DNA of 24,000 nucleotides, from NCBI GenBank assembly GCA_963667575.2, contig CAXXHY010000042.1:115934-139933 (forward strand). Reading direction: 5' to 3'. Each line of letters begins with the position of its first letter. Positions within the stretch are counted from its first letter, which is position 1. Shown here in pieces: positions 6,304 through 17,897 of the stretch. A program made the position numbers and the translations under genes. A model generated the notes under the pieces. It searched no databases. It was not told the origin of the DNA and saw only the letters and a program-made list of their open reading frames with translations. The stretch comes from Desulfovibrionaceae bacterium. GTDB lineage: Bacteria > Desulfobacterota > Desulfovibrionia > Desulfovibrionales > Desulfovibrionaceae.

Positions 6304-7332
6304 ATGGCACCGGATAATTTGCCGAGGCACGCGTTGGATATCGAACCGCTGGGCAGCTCCGAGGTTTTTCTGGAGTTCAGCGAACAGCTGACCCAGGCCG
6401 CCCGGGTGGAGCGTCCGGTGCTGCTTGTGGGCGAGCGGGGCACGGGCAAGGAACTGGCCGCGGCCAGGCTGCATTTTCTCTCCGAACGGTGGGAAGGCCC
6501 CTGGGTGGCCCTGAACTGCGCGGCCGTGGCCCCGGAGCTGGCCGAATCCGAGCTGTTCGGCCACGAAACCGGCGCCTTTACCGGCGCGGTGTCCCGGCGC
6601 ATTGGACGATTTGAGGCAGCGGATACGGGCACTCTGTTTCTGGACGAACTCGGGCAGCTCTCCCTGGAGGCCCAGGGCAAAATACTGCGTACGGTGGAGT
6701 ATGGGGTGTTCGAGCGTATCGGCAGTACGCGGACACTGCGTACTGATGTGCGGGTGGTGGCGGCCACCAATGCGGACCTGCCTGCCATGGCGGCCAAAGG
6801 GGAATTTCGCGCGGACCTGCTGGACCGGCTCAGCTTTCTGGTGCTGACCCTGCCGCCCCTGCGCGCGCGTGGTGAGGATATCCTGCTGCTGGCCAACCAC
6901 TTCGCGCAGCGTATGGCGCAGGAACTCAGGTTGCCGGGGTTGGTGTATTTCGGACCGCGCGCCCTGGAGCAGCTGGCCGACCATCCCTGGCCCGGCAATA
7001 TCCGCGAACTCAAGAACACGGTGGAGCGTTCGGTATTCCATACGCAGGGGGAGGAGATCGAAACCCTGGATCTGGACCCATTTGATTCGCCCTGGCGGAT
7101 GGGCGGAACAGATACCACATCCCGTACGCGGCAGATTTCCGAAGCGTCTCCATTGTCGATGGAATCTTTGCCGTCCGATCTGGATGGGGTTTTGCGGGAC
7201 TACACCATCGGGGCGCTGCGTCAGGCTCTGGAAGAGAGCAGGCACAATCAACGTACCGCGGCCGAACGCCTGGGCCTCAGTTACAACCGCTTTCGCGGAT
7301 TGTACCGGAAGTACGAGGCGGAGCTGTCGTGA
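6304..7332 (+). CDS. pspF: sigma54-dependent transcriptional activator, PspF-like (no N-terminal regulatory domain)
   Basis: Start taken at ATG 6304 (GGAGG at 6295-6299). Walker A is GERGTGKE, the GAFTGA loop is HETGAFTGA, Walker B is LFLDELG, plus PWPGNIRELKN. The C-terminal Fis-type HTH is NQRTAAERLGLSYNRFRGLYRKY. It is divergent from pspA. Confidence 0.88.
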   Translation: MAPDNLPRHALDIEPLGSSEVFLEFSEQLTQAARVERPVLLVGERGTGKELAAARLHFLSERWEGPWVALNCAAVAPELAESELFGHETGAFTGAVSRRIGRFEAADTGTLFLDELGQLSLEAQGKILRTVEYGVFERIGSTRTLRTDVRVVAATNADLPAMAAKGEFRADLLDRLSFLVLTLPPLRARGEDILLLANHFAQRMAQELRLPGLVYFGPRALEQLADHPWPGNIRELKNTVERSVFHTQGEEIETLDLDPFDSPWRMGGTDTTSRTRQISEASPLSMESLPSDLDGVLRDYTIGALRQALEESRHNQRTAAERLGLSYNRFRGLYRKYEAELS

Positions 7333-7358
7333 AAAAGGCCGACAAAAGCCGGCCTTTG
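7332..7358. terminator. shared hairpin terminator between convergent pspF and 7379..7972
   Basis: AAAGGCCG (7334-7341) pairs with CGGCCTTT (7350-7357). The minus-strand version is followed by TTTTT. The plus-strand U-tract is short. Confidence 0.55.
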
Positions 7359-7378
7359 CGATCAATACTGCGGATAGA

Positions 7379-7972
7379 TTAGTAAACGAGCTTGTTCTTT
7401 TTCAGGCTGACGGTAAAGGATCCCTTTTGCGTCGGGCAGCAGCCCGGATCCTGGGGACCGTGGTAGACAACATGCGCCACAAGTTTGTCGCCTTTCAGTT
7501 CGAGGCTCTCGAAACGAAGTTTGGAACTTCCCACAGCGGCCTGATTGATGTGGTAGTCCTTGCCTGTTTTGGTGACAATGCAAAGGAAGCGTACTTCGCC
7601 GTTTCCACCGTCAAATTCGCTGAGCAGCAGGGCGGCGGCAGGAGTGGAGCCCAGCGTGCCCGTGGCGATGAGGCTGATTTCCGCGGATTGTTTTTCGTAT
7701 GCGCCGTTCGTAAATTTTACCAGCGTATAGGGCGGATTTTCAACAAAATTGCCTTCCAGGAAGCTGCCGAAGAGCTGAATCTTGAAGGATAAGTTTTCAA
7801 TGGCCTGTTTGGTCAGTTCGCCGCTTCCGGGAACATCATAGGACATGTTTTCATAAAGATCGGTGAATTTTTGCTGTTTGCACAGCCCCTGCACGGGCAG
7901 CACGAACAATGCGGCAAGCAGGATCGGCAAGATCAGGAAAAGGCGCCTGGTACGGTAATCAAAGCAATGCAT
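7379..7972 (-). CDS. secreted/periplasmic hypothetical protein
   Basis: 197-aa ORF. The N-terminus RRLFLILPILLAALFVLPVQG looks like a signal peptide. A G-rich SD is present. I did not recognise a family. Confidence 0.75.
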   Translation of the reverse strand: MHCFDYRTRRLFLILPILLAALFVLPVQGLCKQQKFTDLYENMSYDVPGSGELTKQAIENLSFKIQLFGSFLEGNFVENPPYTLVKFTNGAYEKQSAEISLIATGTLGSTPAAALLLSEFDGGNGEVRFLCIVTKTGKDYHINQAAVGSSKLRFESLELKGDKLVAHVVYHGPQDPGCCPTQKGSFTVSLKKNKLVY

Positions 7973-8028: not shown

Positions 8029-8078
8029 AATATGTAAAAATATTTAATTGTAGCTAGAATGAATATGTAAAAATATTT
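8029..8078. repeat. two direct copies of a 17-mer (AATATGTAAAAATATTT), 33 bp apart, in the AT-rich leader of 7379..7972
   Basis: Identical 17-mers at 8029-8045 and 8062-8078. A nearby inverted repeat AATGTT...AACATT lies at 7991-8017. Confidence 0.7.
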
Positions 8079-8167
8079 TTTACGTCCAGTATCTTTTACA
8101 ATTCTTTGGGTATCTTTATGCAATGCCAGAGGGGCAGCTTGGAAGGCTCGGAAGTGAAGCAGCCGTG

Positions 8168-9298
8168 TCAGATCACTTTGCGCAGCAGCGGCAACTTGCA
8201 GAGCAGATGGGCGGCAAGAAAGGTCACCAGTACGGACGGAATGGCGACAAGAACGAAGTTCAGCACCGGGTACTGGGTCATGTGGGGCAGCAGCAGTTTC
8301 CCGAAAATACAGAGCGGAATGACCTGCAGAAGATAGGCTGCGTACGCGGATCGGGAAAGGAGCCGGGTCCAGTTGTTTTTTTGGGCAAAGAGCGTCTGGA
8401 AGCCGAAGAGCAGAAAAATACTCATGCCCAGGACTTCGAAAGGCCGTGAAACCATATCGGAAAAAGGCTTCAGAAAGGTCAGGGCCAGAATCCAGATGAG
8501 AATCCAGGTGAACGCGTACCTGAAGGTAATCTGACCGAGCCAGCTGTTTTTTTGCGCCTGAAGGCCAAGGCAGAACATGGCGATGTACATGGGGAAATAT
8601 TTCAGCAAATGAAAACCGAGAAAATCCTCGCCCAGCGTACGCATCAGATAGAGCCCCAGAAAATTGCAGGGAATCATCAGCACGGCAAAAAGCAGCATGT
8701 GGGCTGTTGGCGGAATCGGGGCGGGCGTCCCAGAAGATGGAGCCTGGGCCGGGCGGAATTTCCTCATCAGAACATACGCGCCGTTGAAAACAATCAGCGC
8801 CCAGCAGAACCAGGTCACTCCCATCAGCATGTTGCCTGTCGCCAGCATGGAGCCGTATAACCCGAATGCGCTGCCCATGGATGCGAAAAACGAGGTGTCT
8901 CCGCAGATATACAGGGCCACGGGGTCGATGAGCAGGATCGTTACCAGGGTGGGAATGCCCAGGCGTACGAGCTTGTCCTGCATAAAAATTCTGGCGCCTT
9001 TTCTGTTGTACGAGGACGCAATAAAATAGGCGGAAATGAAAAAGAACAGGCTCATGAAAAAGCCCTGGTTTATGGACTGAAAGGACCTGAGAATGGAGTA
9101 TTGAAACTGCTGCGCCTTGTCCACCAGGGGCAGATTGATGGGAAATTTGTCCAGTCCGGCAATGGCCGCGGCATGGTGCAGGATCACCAGAACCGCCAGC
9201 GTCCATTTGATGTTGTCCAGATAGTCGTAGCGAATCTTGCGCACCGGTGCTAGCGGCTGATCCGTGGATTTTTCAATGTTTCTATCCGCGTCCGGCAT
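8168..9298 (-). CDS. acyltransferase family 3 integral membrane protein
   Basis: 376 aa with about 10 hydrophobic helices. The N-terminal IRYDYLDNIKWTLAVLVILHHAA fits the Acyltransferase_3 signature (R..xLDxxK/R...V...H). Confidence 0.8.
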   Translation of the reverse strand: MPDADRNIEKSTDQPLAPVRKIRYDYLDNIKWTLAVLVILHHAAAIAGLDKFPINLPLVDKAQQFQYSILRSFQSINQGFFMSLFFFISAYFIASSYNRKGARIFMQDKLVRLGIPTLVTILLIDPVALYICGDTSFFASMGSAFGLYGSMLATGNMLMGVTWFCWALIVFNGAYVLMRKFRPAQAPSSGTPAPIPPTAHMLLFAVLMIPCNFLGLYLMRTLGEDFLGFHLLKYFPMYIAMFCLGLQAQKNSWLGQITFRYAFTWILIWILALTFLKPFSDMVSRPFEVLGMSIFLLFGFQTLFAQKNNWTRLLSRSAYAAYLLQVIPLCIFGKLLLPHMTQYPVLNFVLVAIPSVLVTFLAAHLLCKLPLLRKVI

Positions 9299-12003: not shown

Positions 12004-12957
12004 ATGTCCGAATCAGAATCTTTCGAACAGGCCAAGGATATAGCGGGGCGGATCATCGACAACATCCGGACGGTGATGCGCGGGCAGGACCGGGGCATAC
12101 GGCTGTTGCTGGCGGCGTTTGCCGCCGGGGGGCACGCGCTGCTGGAGGATGTGCCGGGCACGGGCAAGACCACTCTGGCCAAGTCCCTGGCCCAGTCCTT
12201 CAAGGCAGAATTCAAGCGCGTGCAGTTCACTCCGGACCTGCTGCCCTCGGACATTCTGGGCGTGTCCGTGTATGAGCAGGGAGAGGCCCGTTTCCGCTTT
12301 TACAAGGGGCCCATTTTTGCCAACATTCTGCTGGGCGATGAGATAAACCGGGCTTCGCCGCGTACGCAGTCCGCGTTGCTGGAGGCCATGGCCGAATTTC
12401 AGGTCAGCATGGACGGCAAGCGTATGCGCCTGCCAGAGCCTTTTTTCGTTGTGGCCACCCAGAATCCGCTGGAGTTTCACGGCACCTATCCGCTGCCGGA
12501 ATCCCAGCTGGACCGTTTCGCCGTCAGCTTCGGCCTGGGTTATGTTCCGGAAGAGGAGGAGATAGCCATCCTCACCGAACAGACCCGCAGCCATCCTCTG
12601 GAACGGCTCAGACCCTGCGCGGAGCTGGCGGACGCTATGCTGCTGCAGGAGGCGGTCCGCGGCATCCGGGTGGACGGGCAGATCAAGGAATACATCGTCC
12701 GTCTGGCCGGGGCCACGCGTACGGCGTCGGGCATCCGCCTGGGAGCCAGTCCGCGCGCCTCGCTGATTCTGATGCGGATCAGCCAGGCCCTTTCGCTGCT
12801 GGACGGCTACGCCTTTGTCACTCCCGACGCCGTGCAGGAGGCCGTTGTTCCGGTGTTTTCCCACCGTCTGGCCCTGGAGCAGCAGGCCAGTTTTTCCGGC
12901 CAGAGCGCGGAGCAGCTTCTGCGCGAGATCATGGGCTCTCTGCCGGTTCCCTCCTGA
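12004..12957 (+). CDS. MoxR-family AAA+ ATPase
   Basis: Walker A is DVPGTGKTTLAK, Walker B is LLGDEINRASP, plus ATQNPLEFHGTYPLPESQLDRF and GASPRASL. GAGGA SD is present. Confidence 0.92.
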   Translation: MSESESFEQAKDIAGRIIDNIRTVMRGQDRGIRLLLAAFAAGGHALLEDVPGTGKTTLAKSLAQSFKAEFKRVQFTPDLLPSDILGVSVYEQGEARFRFYKGPIFANILLGDEINRASPRTQSALLEAMAEFQVSMDGKRMRLPEPFFVVATQNPLEFHGTYPLPESQLDRFAVSFGLGYVPEEEEIAILTEQTRSHPLERLRPCAELADAMLLQEAVRGIRVDGQIKEYIVRLAGATRTASGIRLGASPRASLILMRISQALSLLDGYAFVTPDAVQEAVVPVFSHRLALEQQASFSGQSAEQLLREIMGSLPVPS

Positions 12958-12972
12958 CACGCCGAACTATTC

Positions 12973-14421
12973 ATGGACAGCCTGCGTTTTCTTTTTTTGG
13001 ACCTCCGGGACTTTGCCAGGCGGCGCTACGGGCCGCTTCTGGCATCCTTCTGGCGTACGGGGCAACGCTCCTGGATGCGGTTCACCACCATGGGCCGCGT
13101 GGTGCTCGTAGGCTACGGCATGACCCTGTTGTTTGTGGTCAATACGCGGACCAGCATGAACTACCAGCTTTTTGTGCTGCTGCTGGTGCTGCTCGCCGTG
13201 GCCTTTGCCGGCAGCATGCTCATGAGGCGGCAAAAGCGCTCCATGGCTGTGCAACGTACGCTGCCCCAGTATGCGACCGCGGGCGAACCTTTCAGCTATG
13301 CAGTGACTATCCGCAACACCGGTACGCGGGAAATCGGCCCGCAGCAGCTCATGGAATTTCCGCGCATGGTCCGTTTCACGGATCAGGGCAGCGCAAAGCA
13401 TGATCCTGGTGAATCGGAGAAAATCCGCCGGCACGTTCGGATCCGTTGGCGCGCCCTGCTTGAACGGACTGCTGATCCCGAGGCGGACGAACCGCTGATT
13501 GCGCAGCTTGCCGCCGGAGATAGCGCCACCGTACGTCTGGACGTGCGCGCGCCGGCGCGCGGACTGCTGGAGTTCGGATCCGTATTGCTGGCCAGGCCGG
13601 ATCCGCTGGGTTTGTTTCAGGCGTTCGCGGTGCTGCACCGTGAGGACCGGCTGCTGGTGCTGCCGCGACGCTATGTGCTGCCGCCCCTGGAACTTCCGGG
13701 CGGGCGGCGGTTTCAGCCCGGAGGCGTCAGTCAGGCCGCATCCGCGGGAGAGTCCGGGGAGTTCGCGTCATTGCGGGATTACCGCAGGGGGGATCCCCCC
13801 AAGCATATCCACTGGCGCAGCTGGGCCAAGACAGGTCGCCCCATCGTCAAGGAATACCAGGACGAATTTTATACGCGCCATGCCCTGGTGCTGGATACGT
13901 TTCCGGACCCCAAGCGACTGCCCGGCAGCCGCGATGCCGCCCTGTTCGAGGAGGCCGTATCCGTGGCGGCATCCCTGGCGGTGCTGGAACACGGGCAGGA
14001 CAGCCTCATGGACCTGCTTTTCGTGGCCAACAAGGCCTACCAGTTCACGGCAGGGCGCGGTCTGGCCCAGTCCGGGCAGATGCTCGAGGCCCTGGCCGCG
14101 GTGGGGCCCTGCCTGGAGCAGCCCTTTGAACTGCTGCAGCGTACGGTGCTGCGTCAGGCCGCCCGCATCTGCGGCTGCATCTGCGTACTGCTGAACTGGG
14201 ACACGGCCCGGCAGGAAATGGTCCGCGGGCTGCTGGCCGAAAACGTGGAGCCCCTGGTGTTCGTGTTGCTGGATCAGCGGGCGCCTCAGCCGGATCCCGG
14301 CCCGCTGCAAGCAATGCCCGGAAGGTTTCACCCCTTGCGTATGGGGCGGATTCAGGAAGATCTGCAACGTGCGGGCAGCGGTTTTGCGCAACGTCCCGGA
14401 ACCTCCGGAGGCCATGCCTGA
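12973..14421 (+). CDS. DUF58 domain protein with two N-terminal TM helices (usual partner of MoxR)
   Basis: SLRDYRRGDPPKHIHWRSWAKTGRPIVKEYQDE is the DUF58 core motif. The gene starts 16 nt after the moxR-like stop. At 482 aa it is longer than the ~300-aa DUF58 proteins I recall. Confidence 0.85.
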   Translation: MDSLRFLFLDLRDFARRRYGPLLASFWRTGQRSWMRFTTMGRVVLVGYGMTLLFVVNTRTSMNYQLFVLLLVLLAVAFAGSMLMRRQKRSMAVQRTLPQYATAGEPFSYAVTIRNTGTREIGPQQLMEFPRMVRFTDQGSAKHDPGESEKIRRHVRIRWRALLERTADPEADEPLIAQLAAGDSATVRLDVRAPARGLLEFGSVLLARPDPLGLFQAFAVLHREDRLLVLPRRYVLPPLELPGGRRFQPGGVSQAASAGESGEFASLRDYRRGDPPKHIHWRSWAKTGRPIVKEYQDEFYTRHALVLDTFPDPKRLPGSRDAALFEEAVSVAASLAVLEHGQDSLMDLLFVANKAYQFTAGRGLAQSGQMLEALAAVGPCLEQPFELLQRTVLRQAARICGCICVLLNWDTARQEMVRGLLAENVEPLVFVLLDQRAPQPDPGPLQAMPGRFHPLRMGRIQEDLQRAGSGFAQRPGTSGGHA

Positions 14422-16393
14422 GATGAAACCGCCGCTGTTCTGTCTTTCCGCCGCATTGCTGTTTTGGGGCTGGCTTTCGGGCTTTCTGGTGCCTGCGCTG
14501 GTCATGGCGCTGCTGCTGGAGCTGGCCGGGCCGTCGGGCATCCGGCTGCGTATCCGGCTCAGAGATCTGAACCGGATTGCGGATTTGTGCGTATTGCTTG
14601 TCACAGGGGCCATTGTCTATCTGTTTTTCACGCCCATGGACAATGACGCCATTCTCCCGCTCATCGTGACCCAGTGGAGCCCCATGTTGTTCTATCCGCT
14701 GGCCCTGGCCCAGGCCTATGCGGAAAGTGAAACCTTCGCACTGGTGGCGCTGCTGCCGGTGCTGGGGGCGCGCCGGAGCAGGGAACTGGACCGGAAACCG
14801 CAAAAAGTTTCTGGCGCCAATCTGCTGTTCCCCTATTTCGGCCTGGTGCTGCTGGCAGCGGGCAGCGCGAATCAGCGCTATAACCTGTACTATACGGTGC
14901 TGTTCGTGCTGGTGGCCTGGGGGCTATCCGCAGCCCGTCCGAAATATGCGGGGCCTTCCGGGGCCTCATGGAAAGGGTGGCTGCTCTGGGCCGGGCTGCT
15001 TCTGGCCTGCGGTTACATCGGCGATGTGGGGCAGGAGAAGCTGGACGAACAACAGGCCCGCTTGCGCGGCTGGTCGGCCGGAGCAGACCCGTACCATCGC
15101 GAGACATCCATGGGCAGCATGGGGACGCTCAAGCTCTCAGACAAGATTCTGATGCGCGTACGCCCTGGCCCGGGGCGCAAAGGGCCGCCGCATCTGCTGC
15201 GCGAGGCCAGCTACAATTTTTATCGCGGGCTCTCCTGGGAGGCTGCCACCGGCTTTTTCGGCGTGGTGCCTTCCAAGGATGCGGACAAGACCGACTGGAT
15301 TCTGCATTCGGGGCTCGATGCGGACGGCTACGTGAGCATCTATCGCTATTTCCCGCGTCGTCTGGGATTGGTCCCGGTGCCCGGCGGCACCACCAGAATT
15401 TCGTCGCTGCCGGCCAGGGAAGTCCTGCTGAACAGTCTGGGCGCCATCAAGGCGGAGCGGGCGGACGGCCTGTGCGCCTACAAGGCCTGGTATATTGAGG
15501 GTGGTTTTCTGGAAGGCGGTCCCAATCCGGTGGATGAGGTGGTGCCTCCGGCGGACCGTCCGGCCCTGGAAAAGATAGCTCAAGACAGCGGACTGGATAC
15601 CGCGGCTCCGGAAGATGTCTCCAGGACACTGCTGGAATATATCTGGAAGCACTACAGCTATTCGCTGCGTCTGGAACGGAGCGACACCAAGCTGGATCCG
15701 TTGAGTGATTTTCTGTTGAATACGCGCAAGGGGCATTGCGAGTATTTTGCCACGGCCGCGGCCATGCTGCTGCGCCAGGTGGGGATTCCCAGTCGTTACG
15801 TGGTGGGCTATGCGGTGGTGGAATATGATCCGGAAACGGATTTTTATATTATCCGCGAACGCCACAGACACGCCTGGGCCATTTATTACGCAGGGTACAG
15901 CTGGCATGTGCTGGATGCCACACCGCCGGACTGGAGCGCGCTGGAATACCGCGAACCGGGGTTCTGGCAGAAGCTGGATGATTTTCGTTCGCGCGTGATA
16001 TTCACCCTGTCCAGCTGGCGCTGGCTGGAGGAACGGGGCAAGGTCAAGACAGGCCTGCTGCTGGGAGCCCTGGCCCTGGGGCTGGTGATGGCGGTTCGTA
16101 TTTTGCGGCAACAGGGCAAACAAGGGCTTCGCCGCATACGCCGCAAGAAAAATCCATACGGGGCCGAGGAAAAAGAACTGCCCTTTGCCAGAGTGGAAGC
16201 CCGGCTGCGCAGGCAGGGTTTGGAACGTCCGGAGTGGGAGCCGTTGAAACGCTGGCTGCAGGAAAACAACCAGGAAGCCCTGCTGCCCGGAGTGCGGCTG
16301 CATTACAAACAGCGTTTTGATCCCGAGGGATTCAGCGAAGCAGACCTGCGGCAATTGGAAAAAATCGTGGAGGAATGGCTGCGACAAAGGTAG
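14414..16393 (+). CDS. transglutaminase-like membrane protein
   Basis: The Cys-His-Asp core is GHCEYFATAAAMLLRQVGIPSRYVVGY ... RHRHAWAIYY ... WHVLDATP. There is a multi-TM N-terminal region and one TM helix after the core. The start is ambiguous: ATG 14414 overlaps the DUF58 stop, and ATG 14423 lies 1 nt after it. GGAGG is at 14407-14411. Confidence 0.88.
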   Translation: MPEMKPPLFCLSAALLFWGWLSGFLVPALVMALLLELAGPSGIRLRIRLRDLNRIADLCVLLVTGAIVYLFFTPMDNDAILPLIVTQWSPMLFYPLALAQAYAESETFALVALLPVLGARRSRELDRKPQKVSGANLLFPYFGLVLLAAGSANQRYNLYYTVLFVLVAWGLSAARPKYAGPSGASWKGWLLWAGLLLACGYIGDVGQEKLDEQQARLRGWSAGADPYHRETSMGSMGTLKLSDKILMRVRPGPGRKGPPHLLREASYNFYRGLSWEAATGFFGVVPSKDADKTDWILHSGLDADGYVSIYRYFPRRLGLVPVPGGTTRISSLPAREVLLNSLGAIKAERADGLCAYKAWYIEGGFLEGGPNPVDEVVPPADRPALEKIAQDSGLDTAAPEDVSRTLLEYIWKHYSYSLRLERSDTKLDPLSDFLLNTRKGHCEYFATAAAMLLRQVGIPSRYVVGYAVVEYDPETDFYIIRERHRHAWAIYYAGYSWHVLDATPPDWSALEYREPGFWQKLDDFRSRVIFTLSSWRWLEERGKVKTGLLLGALALGLVMAVRILRQQGKQGLRRIRRKKNPYGAEEKELPFARVEARLRRQGLERPEWEPLKRWLQENNQEALLPGVRLHYKQRFDPEGFSEADLRQLEKIVEEWLRQR

Positions 16394-16406
16394 GGGGGCG
16401 TGGGGT

Positions 16407-16578
16407 GTGGGGCTAATGCCATGTCGCCCTTACAGGGCTTTTCATTTAATTCATGCGTGTTACCCAGGGCTGCACCCTGGGCTGTAAATAACCCGCCCCG
16501 TTGGGGCTAGGGTCTTGGCGATGCGGGATAAATTGCAACCTGCTTAGGGGGTGTACCTGGCAGGGTGCTTGTGCATCG
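16407..16578 (+). repeat. hairpin-rich intergenic repeat, copy 1
   Basis: It contains GCCCT-TAC-AGGGC, CCCAGGG-CTGCA-CCCTGGG and GCCCC-GTT-GGGGC stem-loops. It starts 14 nt after the transglutaminase stop. Confidence 0.85.
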
Positions 16579-16641
16579 TCTCTTTGCCCGCTTCAAAAAT
16601 ATTGTTTGGTGCTCCGGGCTTCAGGCTTCAGGCGTCGGGGG

Positions 16642-16813
16642 CCGGGGCTGGGGCCATGTCGCCCTTACAGGGCTTGTATTTTGTTGCGGTCATCATACCC
16701 AGGGCTGCACCCTGGGCTGTAAATAACGCGCCCCGTTGGGGCTAGGGTCGTGGCGCTGCGGGATAAATTGCAACCTTCTCTGGGGGTGTACCTGGCAGGG
16801 TGCTTGTGCATCG
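16642..16813 (+). repeat. hairpin-rich intergenic repeat, copy 2 (tandem, 235-bp period)
   Basis: By hand alignment, 16696-16813 against 16461-16578 shows 6 mismatches in 118 positions and no indels. The 23-nt head GCCATGTCGCCCTTACAGGGCTT is identical (16653-16675 vs 16418-16440). The 20-nt spacer between head and core is diverged but has the same length. Confidence 0.85.
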
Positions 16814-17048
16814 GATCCATGTCTGTCTTCGTCCCTAGGCCTACCGCATTTATTTTTCGCAGTGCACAGTGGGGTGTCATCTCCATTATTTATCCCGCAA
16901 TGTATTCCTATCGCAACGTGCATACCCTCGCGCATGGCATTCCCTTTTGCTTACCTCTGATGCAACATTTCCCTTTTGGATTTTCACTCCTGCGGATTTG
17001 TACCCATCTTTGGCATTTTGCTCCCCCAGTCGCATCGCATCCGGGGCA

Positions 17049-17140
17049 AGCCCCAACGGGGCGGCTTATTTATAGCCCAGGGTGCAACCCTGGGGGTGGG
17101 TGGGCGATGTTTTTTTGAGCTCTGAAGGGGCGACATGGCA
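17049..17140 (-). repeat. partial inverted copy (copy 3) of the same repeat
   Basis: 17049-17094 equals the reverse complement of 16463-16508 with 3 mismatches in 46, all outside the two stems. GGGCGACATGGCA at 17128-17140 equals the reverse complement of the head. The 33-nt head-to-core spacing is conserved. Confidence 0.8.
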
Positions 17141-17187
17141 GATGACAATCACTGTATACGCCGCATCTGCAGGGCCGGAAAAAGCGT

Positions 17188-17218
17188 AAAAAAAAGCCTG
17201 CCGAAACGTTCGGCAGGC
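17188..17218 (-). terminator. strong rho-independent terminator of 17247..17897
   Basis: The minus strand reads GCCTGCCGAA-CGT-TTCGGCAGGC (10-bp stem) followed by TTTTTTTT. Confidence 0.85.
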
Positions 17219-17246
17219 CATGGAAAGCAGCGGCGGATGGGCTTTG

Positions 17247-17897
17247 TCAGCGGAAGAACCGCGTGTTTTCCTCGATTTTGATCAAAATGGGAATCATCAG
17301 GAACAGCACCAGGAAAATCAGGGAGAAGCATAACAGCATCAGAATATACGTGCGTTCTTTATAGGAAGCGTCCCAGCGTCCTTTTTCCTGGCGTACGAGC
17401 TGGATGAAAATCTTGTTGTACTTGTGAGCCATGTTCAGGAAAAGCGCTTTTTGGTCGACGCCCTCGAGGTTGAGATCCTTTTGTTGTTCCAGCCAGTCCT
17501 TGTAGCCGCCCAGAAAGTCGTACAGACCGTCCACAAAACGGGTCCGGCGGTTGATGGGCGTATTGGCCAGCCATTCTACGATGGTTTCGTAGCTTCCGGT
17601 GTCCAGATTATAATCTTCAATGATGTTCTTGATATGCGAGTCGTACTTGTTGGTGACGGCCCGCTTGGTGTCGATCATGGAAAAGTCGAGCTCTTTCTTG
17701 CTCTGATTGGAAACGTCCAGGTAGGGCAGAAATTCGTCGAATTCCGGTTCCTGCAGTCTGTCCGGGGCTGCTCCGAGATACATGAACAGACCAATCACAA
17801 AAAGAATAAGGCATAGCGATGCTATGCACAGAGAAGTTATTTTTCCAAATCGCAGAAACAGGTTGGTCAACCTGTCGGATTTGCCGGAGTCGAACAT
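17247..17897 (-). CDS. hypothetical membrane protein (N- and C-terminal TM helices flanking a ~140-aa soluble domain)
   Basis: 216-aa ORF. GAGGTG SD lies 6 nt upstream. The TM helices are ITSLCIASLCLILFVIGLFMYLG and YILMLLCFSLIFLVLFLMIPILI. GC content looks lower than in the neighbours. Confidence 0.75.
   Translation of the reverse strand: MFDSGKSDRLTNLFLRFGKITSLCIASLCLILFVIGLFMYLGAAPDRLQEPEFDEFLPYLDVSNQSKKELDFSMIDTKRAVTNKYDSHIKNIIEDYNLDTGSYETIVEWLANTPINRRTRFVDGLYDFLGGYKDWLEQQKDLNLEGVDQKALFLNMAHKYNKIFIQLVRQEKGRWDASYKERTYILMLLCFSLIFLVLFLMIPILIKIEENTRFFR

Follow-up and report, generated by a model that had tools for sequence, protein, structure and literature searches.

Hairpin repeats in a Desulfovibrionaceae contig as probable members of a dispersed REP-like family associated with Y1 transposases

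The DNA analyzed here, hereafter the window, is a stretch of 24,000 nt from contig CAXXHY010000042.1 of a Desulfovibrionaceae bacterium (assembly GCA_963667575.2, positions 115,934 to 139,933 of the forward strand), and the subject of this work is a cluster of three copies of a hairpin-rich repeat that lies between two of its genes. The cluster sits in an 853-bp region separating two convergent genes, both of them outside the element: on the left, a gene for a transglutaminase-like protein (14369-16393, plus strand; the ENA call starts at 14414) and, on the right, a gene for a 216-aa protein without a Pfam family (17247-17897, minus strand), which was used for fetching orthologous loci. An intrinsic terminator of the 216-aa gene, with an 11-bp stem and a T-run, is located at 17187-17219 on the minus strand. 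An earlier note, based on the letters of the window, had described two direct copies with a period of 235 bp and an inverted, partial third copy, and both the repeat finder and BLASTN bear this description out. The repeat finder returned a direct repeat of 177 nt (16402-16578 and 16637-16813, 86% identity, 235 nt from start to start), and inverted arms that tie copies 1 and 2 to 17049-17094 (46 nt, 91-93%) and 17118-17140 (23 nt, 86-87%); for copy 1, the arm pairs are 16463-16508 with 17049-17094 (93%) and 16417-16439 with 17118-17140 (87%). BLASTN aligned copies 1 and 2 over 118 nt at 94.9% identity, with the six mismatches and no gaps that had been counted before, and over an identical 23-nt head, and the 20-nt segments between head and core, described earlier as equal in length and different in sequence, match in 8 of 20 bases. 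A 30-nt core pattern has three occurrences in the window, compared with none in 100 shuffles. The two direct repeat units are separated by a unique 58-nt segment (16579-16636, plus strand), and copies 2 and 3 by 235 bp of unique DNA (16814-17048).

No Pfam family was found above threshold for the seven open reading frames (ORFs) drawn across the repeat region (FluMu_N reached 15.5 bits, E 0.014, for a cut-off of 25.8), the ENA gene caller placed no gene over that region in the annotation of an identical contig, and a scan of the window with Rfam at gathering thresholds and for tRNAs gave zero matches. The cluster accounts for the overlapping, spurious ORFs seen at this position, and it is a likely spot for assembly breaks.

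At the level of the family described below, the conserved module spans about 91 nt and consists of a hairpin (hp2a), a non-conserved spacer of about 22 nt, a second hairpin (hp1), a linker of about 11 nt and a third hairpin (hp2b). The part of the cluster that is kept beyond this locus comprises only 16417-16508, 16652-16743 and 17140-17049. In the window the unit reads as a leader, TGCCATGTC, followed by hp2a (GCCCT-TAC-AGGGC, then T), hp1 (CCCAGGGy-TGC-ACCCTGGG, then CT) and hp2b (GCCCC-GTT-GGGGC, then T). Copy 1 (16417-16508, plus strand) has the leader, then hp2a at 16426-16438, the spacer at 16440-16462, hp1 at 16463-16483 (CCCAGGGC-TGC-ACCCTGGG-CT, with C.A as the eighth pair), the linker at 16484-16494 and hp2b at 16495-16507, and is followed by a tail (16509-16578) common to copy 2 only. 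Copy 2 (16652-16743, plus strand) is laid out likewise, with hp2a at 16661-16673, the spacer at 16675-16697, hp1 at 16698-16718, hp2b at 16730-16742 and its tail at 16744-16813. Copy 3 (17049-17140) lies on the minus strand, with hp2b at 17050-17062, the linker at 17063-17073, hp1 at 17074-17094, the spacer at 17095-17117 and a degenerate hp2a with its leader at 17118-17140; its core differs from that of copy 1 at three positions, one in hp1, where the eighth pair changes from C.A to T-A, and two in the linker. The 23-nt head matches the second half of the Rfam model RF01687, discussed below, and hence represents a second copy of the small hairpin.

The minimum-energy fold of copies 1 and 2 as single-stranded DNA consists of exactly these three hairpins (z = -2.05 and -1.76, respectively). 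In copy 3, hp2a no longer pairs in this fold, and hp1 has a full 8-bp stem closed by the T-A eighth pair. Decay is apparent from the C.A mismatch that copies 1 and 2 carry in hp1 and from the broken hp2a of copy 3. When the whole 177-nt unit is folded as RNA on the plus strand, it does no better than shuffles (z = -0.98 and 0.03).

The module is found well beyond the window. A scan of metagenomes with the pattern GGGCT-N16-28-CCCAGGG-N5-CCCTGGGCT, the listing of which provides a lower bound, identified at least 120 loci sharing the module architecture, for a chance expectation of about 10 by our own estimate. Uniqueness to this locus, which the earlier note had put forward as the mark of a simple local duplication, is thus not a property of the 91-nt module. 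Aligned on hp1, the loci yield the consensus ..TGTnnC-GCCCTTTCAGGGC-T, 19-25 free bases, CCCAGGGCGTTGCCCTGGG-CT, a linker of about 10 nt (GgtATGTnnC), a 5-bp hairpin and T. In a position logo of 131 units, conservation ends about 6 nt upstream of hp2a and 1 nt past hp2b; the family-level element is therefore about 90 nt long, and the 70-nt tail seen in the window falls outside it.

Since the scan pattern left hp2b unconstrained, this hairpin offers a fair test of structure. A perfect 5-bp stem is present at the expected place in 128 of 147 units (shuffle mean 36.8, maximum 49), with more than 30 different stem sequences in use, and 702 of the 725 hp2b pairs are Watson-Crick, with three G.T and nine A.C. 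At the eighth pair of the hp1 stem, 136 units have C-G, five have T-A, two have T.G and three have C.A, two of these last being copies 1 and 2 of the window. Stem pairing is under selection and is kept by compensatory change, in line with the earlier suggestion that selection here acts on structure rather than on coding, and the near-absence of wobble pairs is easier to reconcile with a palindrome at the DNA level than with an RNA. A stricter pattern was run against a genome collection with one genome per species, among whose GTDB representatives the species of the window is not included. It gave six matches, three of them real (Chitinophagales, Spartobacteria and Anammoxibacter); one (locus L005) is partial or uncertain, and two (L003 and L004) were discarded as chance terminators on the other strand. 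Core-pattern scans of viral contigs gave 0 matches. The same hairpin sequence appears in contigs whose names place them in Verrucomicrobiota, Planctomycetota and Bacteroidota, as well as in the lineage of the window. For that lineage, the best UbiB homologues other than the one from its single close relative (87% identical) reach 47% identity at most, and those that bear names (40-45%) come mostly from Desulfobacterota. Such a cross-phylum hairpin sequence is unlike the lineage-specific repetitive extragenic palindromes (REPs), and it raises the question of horizontal spread versus a fixed recognition code.

Family members occur as singletons, as direct arrays and as head-to-head inverted doublets, the doublets being the commonest. 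Adjacent copies form 38 head-to-head pairs among the loci listed (at least 120), most of them spaced 106-167 nt from hp1 to hp1 with a mode of about 122 nt; the wider spacings are 195, 197 and 350 nt and, in four pairs, 576-666 nt. The same 120 loci hold 25 direct pairs, mostly with periods of 66-97 nt, and six tail-to-tail pairs. The window contains the two rarer classes, namely a direct pair at 235 nt and the tail-to-tail pair formed by copies 2 and 3. With crude gene calls based on the longest ORFs, no orientation bias relative to flanking genes was detected; all four contexts occur, which argues that the element is not a dedicated signal of 5' or 3' untranslated regions.

The core formed by hp1, linker and hp2b (46 nt) in all three window copies matches the Rfam family RF01687, Acido-Lenti-1, over its full length (model positions 1-46) and with both stems paired when Rfam is scanned by E-value. 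Copy 3 scores 32.5 bits (E 2.8e-5), copy 1 24.2 and copy 2 23.7, and sister copies in other loci clear the gathering score of the family, with 44.8 and 41.4 bits in L081, 41.4 in L088, 38.8 in L032 and 37.9 in L130. Like Acido-Lenti-1, the family has hairpins of 8 and 5 bp, GGCU after the first, a linker of about 12 nt that ends in CG, and CU behind the second; all three copies of the window show this two-hairpin architecture in full, GGCU following hairpin 1 and CG...CU enclosing hairpin 2. The hp1 loop in the window is one base shorter than in the Rfam model, and the model lacks hp2a and the spacer. Acido-Lenti-1 was defined from 89 sequences of Acidobacteria, Lentisphaerae and metagenomes and was scored as a likely RNA, and the sole comment on its context is that it sometimes lies near group II introns in Lentisphaerae (Weinberg et al. 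2010, PMC2864571). The coordinates of those seed sequences reveal inverted pairs in addition to tandem arrays with periods of 69, 74, 110, 115, 192 and 200 nt, and in the seeds from Lentisphaera the flanking sequence upstream of hp1 holds, at a distance of about 24 nt, a hairpin resembling hp2. Rfam types the family as 'Gene; sRNA' of unknown function, whereas our evidence favors a repeat at the DNA level with a link to a Y1 transposase. In the full-text literature that mentions the motif we found no reinterpretation of it, and full-text search with the hp1 sequence of either strand returned no paper.

An all-against-all comparison of ORFs in the fetched loci revealed only one recurrent neighbor protein family. 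Its members are about 150 aa long, start with MPQSL..HLIFSTK.R and carry the motifs DHVHLL, WQ.GYG and YI.NQ..HH, which could be read directly in eight proteins; they match the Pfam family Y1_Tnp (PF01797) at E 1e-22 to 1e-26 and clear the NCBIfam IS200 model NF033573 with 63-68 bits (cut-off 55). By tblastn, 10 full Y1 genes and seven fragments were located in the 120 loci listed and, wherever the flank suffices, the gene is flanked by two inverted element copies whose hp2a ends face it. This layout of a Y1 gene between inverted repeats, known as a REPtron, is found in related loci and not in the window: tblastn detected no Y1 gene in the 24 kb of the window, agreeing with the earlier remark that no RAYT-like gene lies nearby, nor in loci L001 and L139-L141. 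The gene-less head-to-head doublets look like the gene-carrying unit with its gene deleted. The converse test gave the same picture, since four Y1 genes fetched by protein similarity alone (P0022, P0081, P0302 and P0269, 43-76% identical to the query) all carry inverted three-hairpin flanks, a fifth contig being too short to judge. In L145 the layout is unchanged and the hp1 stem sequence is different and longer, as expected if repeat and enzyme co-vary. The copy lying 100 nt past the stop codon of the Y1 gene in L130 is the one that scores 37.9 bits against RF01687, for a gathering score of 37, so that the Rfam motif and the Y1 flanks are one and the same thing.

When one of these Y1 sequences served as the query of a protein search, 6226 matches were obtained at E <= 1e-20, with names such as 'REP element-mobilizing transposase RayT' (JGI) and 'IS200/IS605 family transposase' (NCBI) and with Verrucomicrobiota among the sources, and an exhaustive HMMER search placed the clade in 261 clusters at 50% identity (E <= 1e-30). 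Going by motifs alone, compared with Table 1 of PMC6006769, the enzymes can be assigned to TnpAY1 subclass 1.2, with which they share DH[VI]H, WQ and YIxNQxxHH, a length of about 150 aa (about 148 aa in the published criterion), a private C-terminal domain of about 30 aa and a genomic context that is stable from sample to sample. That subclass was reported to be without REPs and without the properties of insertion sequences (Quentin, Siguier, Chandler & Fichant 2018, PMC6006769), whereas here inverted units of the Acido-Lenti-1 type flank the 10 full genes and all four of the protein-fetched genes with enough flank; two of these are named by NCBI as Verrucomicrobiota.

Several further observations concern these Y1 genes. 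Fragments encoding the last 35 residues or so adjoin element copies in L048 (three, 8043-9002), L116 (4591-4695), L061 (1542-1646), L017 (292-396) and L013 (4-120), and look like internal-deletion derivatives of the gene-carrying unit. In two Verrucomicrobia lineages (L128-L137, with the Y1 gene at 3001-3453 in L130, and L138, with it at 7070-7522), the Y1 gene resides within a type I restriction-modification operon, in the order hsdM-Y1-hsdS on one strand, and the Y1 gene and hsdS are each preceded by an inverted element copy that stops 9 nt short of the ATG; this context is constant in 10 places from different samples. In L092 (about 230-1100), coding pieces similar to the HsdS N-terminus (MSLEAFFEKFD...) and to the conserved C-terminal region of HsdS lie on either side of a Y1 gene and its repeats, and it looks as if the unit had inserted into, or rearranged, an hsdS gene. 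Many proteins of about 290 aa (P0247, P0249-P0251, P0253 and others) contain two tandem Y1 domains of this clade, which could mean that the Y1 dimer is here made as a single chain. Contigs with a Y1 gene (L142, L144, L145 and most matches of the protein search) very often measure no more than 0.5-2 kb and break off within the flanking repeats, as would fit repeats that disrupt short-read assemblies; the copy number of the element in metagenome-assembled genomes is thus probably underestimated.

The site itself can be followed in close relatives of the window, as the 216-aa protein falls into a 90%-identity cluster with proteins from a 4.26-Mb and a 6.3-Mb contig. One orthologous site (L139) has an 87-bp spacer with the terminator only and no element, and two others (L140 and L141) have 426 bp with one head-to-head doublet that bears a lineage-specific head, TGCCATGTCGCCC. 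The terminator of the 216-aa gene is present in all three and constitutes the sole conserved intergenic feature in the empty site. Across 65 kb of sequence from the window and its relatives, matches to Acido-Lenti-1 are confined to this orthologous site. The intergenic site is hence polymorphic among close relatives, by presence, absence and rearrangement.

Taken together, these results lead us to regard the window copies, with a probability of roughly 0.78, as non-autonomous members of a widespread family of REP/REPIN-like extragenic palindromes that is partnered by a subclass-1.2 Y1 enzyme, which would cleave them and mobilize them in trans. The dispersed family, the covarying stems, the inverted flanks of the Y1 genes and the polymorphic site all speak for the REP/BIME-like or non-autonomous mobile element that was among the options of the earlier note. 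If the chemistry of IS608 TnpA and of TnpA-REP in E. coli is taken as a guide, the hairpins would act as single-stranded DNA, and the Y1 enzyme would bind them and cut and rejoin the adjoining DNA; the CT conserved behind each stem and the TGTnnC in front of hp2 are candidates for the positions of cleavage or guiding. Both the doublets and the single units might then be non-autonomous derivatives mobilized in trans, in the manner of REPIN and RAYT or of the peel-and-paste transposition of IS200/IS605. Given the lack of a Y1 gene within 24 kb and the signs of decay, the window cluster appears to be passive and was probably deposited long ago in this convergent terminator region; taken by itself, the locus is ordinary, probably a decaying deposit of a selfish repeat.

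The likeness to the REP, BIME and REPIN-RAYT systems of E. coli and Pseudomonas fluorescens is extensive. In both cases, short extragenic palindromes form tightly spaced inverted doublets, clusters and arrays, a single Y1 HUH gene lies between inverted copies, other copies have no gene, and intergenic or terminator sites are favored; moreover, inverted doublets are the commonest arrangement here (38, vs. 25 direct and six tail-to-tail pairs), and one of them occupies the site of the window in L140 and L141. The family unit is nonetheless a composite of three hairpins and a free spacer, as opposed to one palindrome of 20-40 nt, and the family does not have the tags GTAG and CGTC described by Di Nocera et al. 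(2013). With IS200/IS605 elements such as IS608 and ISDra2, the related loci share a Y1 TnpA with HUH and Y---Q motifs that passes the IS200 model, and with these elements and the PATEs they share hairpins near both ends, internally deleted derivatives that keep the 3' end of the gene and a presumed single-stranded DNA mechanism. The ends of IS200/IS605 elements, however, are not inverted repeats of each other, whereas the flanks here are inverted copies; no tnpB is found here, and one protein stays in one context across many samples (the identical protein P0022 has a single genomic context in 10 places or samples), which does not look IS-like. The element has the layout of REP/REPIN-RAYT but misses the GT[AG]G foot, the class-2 enzyme and the end structure of IS200/IS605, and it is not a new kind of system.

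A number of results weigh against the assignment of the window copies to a mobile, enzyme-partnered family. All three score under the RF01687 gathering score of 37 bits, about 70 kb of readable DNA in the window and its relatives holds no other copy and no Y1 gene, and neither a target-site duplication nor an exact insertion boundary is definable against the empty site of L139, the intergenic DNA being too diverged. The neighbor enzyme fails the REP_Tyr_transpos model NF047646 (24.7 bits, cut-off 80) and belongs to class 1 (Y---Q--HH, IS200-like), whereas RAYT is class 2 (Y---NP). The family lacks the 5' GT[AG]G foot of REPs, its logo having T-(G/A)-T-n-n-C ahead of hp2a and a T behind hp2b; and hp1 is near-constant across phyla and genome compositions, whereas REPs are usually lineage-specific and co-diverge with RAYT. 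Furthermore, subclass 1.2 was without REPs in the survey of Quentin et al. (2018), the mobility of the element and the cutting of its hairpins by Y1 are presumed by analogy, and the element model by itself accounts neither for the tail nor for the lack of relation between the spacers of copies 1 and 2.

Two other accounts of the hairpins deserve attention. The copies might be multicopy genes for small structured RNAs acting in trans, an option already listed in the earlier note and one that draws on the match of the core to a family typed by Rfam as a small RNA, on the covariation of the stems and on the original scoring of the motif as a likely RNA by Weinberg et al. (2010). Neither a sigma-70-like promoter nor a terminator frames the units, however, the 177-nt unit folds no better than shuffles as plus-strand RNA, and the stems are 97% Watson-Crick with almost no G.U; copies lie in either orientation relative to genes and form inverted doublets around a transposase gene, and their presence at one and the same site varies among close relatives. 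The option corresponds to the way in which Rfam types the core, and we deem it quite unlikely. The hairpins might also have been recruited by the host, a proposal compatible with a mobile origin, as cis-acting 3'-end signals of the two convergent genes, be it as mRNA stabilizers, terminators or protein-binding sites. REPs of E. coli have been described in all three roles. Copies 1 and 2 lie in sense orientation directly past the stop codon of the plus-strand gene, which has no other recognizable terminator, copy 3 lies in sense orientation after the minus-strand gene, and hp2a with its T-rich spacer scores as terminator-like. Yet the relative L139 makes do with an 87-bp spacer and no element, copy 3 is downstream of a strong intrinsic terminator and is hence probably not transcribed with its gene, and the family as a whole shows no orientation preference, so that recruitment of this kind seems unlikely.

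The tails and spacers of copies 1 and 2 pose a puzzle of their own. The 70-nt tail is identical at 65 of 70 positions (93%) and is common to these two copies only, as is a G-rich leader that also lies outside the family; the sequences beyond the tails are unrelated, and so are the 20-nt segments between hp2a and hp1. No match to the tail, the 58-nt segment or the 235-bp spacer DNA was found in any fetched locus, and uniqueness to the locus may hold for the tail. A purely local tandem duplication of unconstrained intergenic DNA could invoke this private tail and leader, together with flank-carrying duplications elsewhere. It is refuted for the module, which is present in at least 120 other loci and rearranged at the same site in relatives, and it cannot yield a 20-nt segment of 8/20 identity inside flanks that are 95-100% identical; a plain 235-bp tandem duplication is thus insufficient, and as a full account we consider it extremely improbable. 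Duplications that carry flank do occur elsewhere: L084 (1600-2750) contains a tandem block with a period of about 600 nt and some three repeats, each with an inverted element pair and non-element DNA.

The tails might instead encode the conserved N-terminus of small Cys-rich peptides, part of the repeat then being duplicated coding sequence. In one frame, TTG GGG CTA..., which is open in both copies (16501-16578 and 16736-16813), they specify 26 near-identical residues, GLGSWRCGINCNLL[R/W]GCTWQGACAS, and, of the five substitutions that separate the tails, four fall on third positions and are synonymous; the tail, besides, is 93% identical while the spacer and the 58-nt segment are unrelated. 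Codon-biased substitution, named by the earlier note as what would support a real gene, is hence weakly hinted at in the tail only, with too few changes to count (P about 0.05-0.14 by our own binomial estimate). With only five changes, a frame that starts in a hairpin and ORFs that diverge after 26 residues, coding is unlikely; the start would be a TTG inside hp2b with no ribosome-binding site, there is no Pfam match or gene call, and the tail has no match in the fetched loci, all of which makes the peptides a very improbable explanation.

Under the reading of the copies as REP-like elements, a local duplication may have taken 70 nt of flank along with the element, and one copy may later have had its spacer replaced. 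The simplest mechanism would be ectopic gene conversion, with another family member as the donor and the conserved hairpins as the limits of the tract; a more speculative possibility is that the enzyme itself exchanged the inter-hairpin segment. In its boldest form, which we hold to be improbable, Acido-Lenti-1 would be not an RNA gene but the missing cognate repeat of the orphan Y1 clade TnpAY1 subclass 1.2, whose enzyme would cleave and religate single-stranded DNA at the CT conserved behind each hairpin and treat the segment of about 22 nt between hp2a and hp1 as an exchangeable cassette, so that the spacers of copies 1 and 2 would be the footprint of swapping by the enzyme and not of gene conversion. 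The history of the tail may also involve copy 3. A 12-mer of the tail, TGCGGGATAAAT, occurs at 16521-16532 and 16756-16767 on the plus strand and at about 16888-16899 on the minus strand, the last some 150 nt downstream of hp2b of copy 3; its chance expectation is about 0.002 by our own estimate, and it could be a displaced remnant of a tail that belonged to copy 3.

CRISPR arrays, integron attC sites and type III toxin-antitoxin RNA arrays were considered and set aside. Against a CRISPR array, the spacers are repeated and non-unique (L081, L032), copies lie in both orientations and no cas-type family is found among the ten largest ORFs of the window. Integron attC sites would require a single long imperfect hairpin with R''/L''-L'/R' boxes, and neither this nor cassette ORFs are seen; and no toxin gene follows the copies, as it would in a type III toxin-antitoxin RNA array. 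With regard to miniature inverted-repeat transposable elements, the doublets are inverted repeats, and empty and filled sites are too diverged to be aligned for a duplication.

The association described here gives a testable identity, that of a REP-like DNA element, to an Rfam small RNA family whose function has been listed as unknown since 2010, and it provides a candidate DNA substrate for a Y1/HUH clade that was described in 2018 as lacking repeats. A link between Acido-Lenti-1 and TnpAY1 subclass 1.2 did not turn up in the searchable literature, and it is directly testable.

Lastly, the genes upstream of the cluster merit a brief mention. On the plus strand of the window, genes for a MoxR-type AAA ATPase, a DUF58 protein and the transglutaminase-like protein follow each other in a row (12004-16393), forming a MoxR/DUF58/transglutaminase cluster of the ordinary kind that has nothing to do with the repeats. 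In the window, the genes for the DUF58 and transglutaminase-like proteins abut or overlap (about 14369-14421), and the relatives have one or two extra genes between them, for a methyltransferase and an agmatine-deiminase-like protein (PAD_porph), at 12862-14905 in L139 and 13257-13724 in L140, which makes this a second variable spot in the region.

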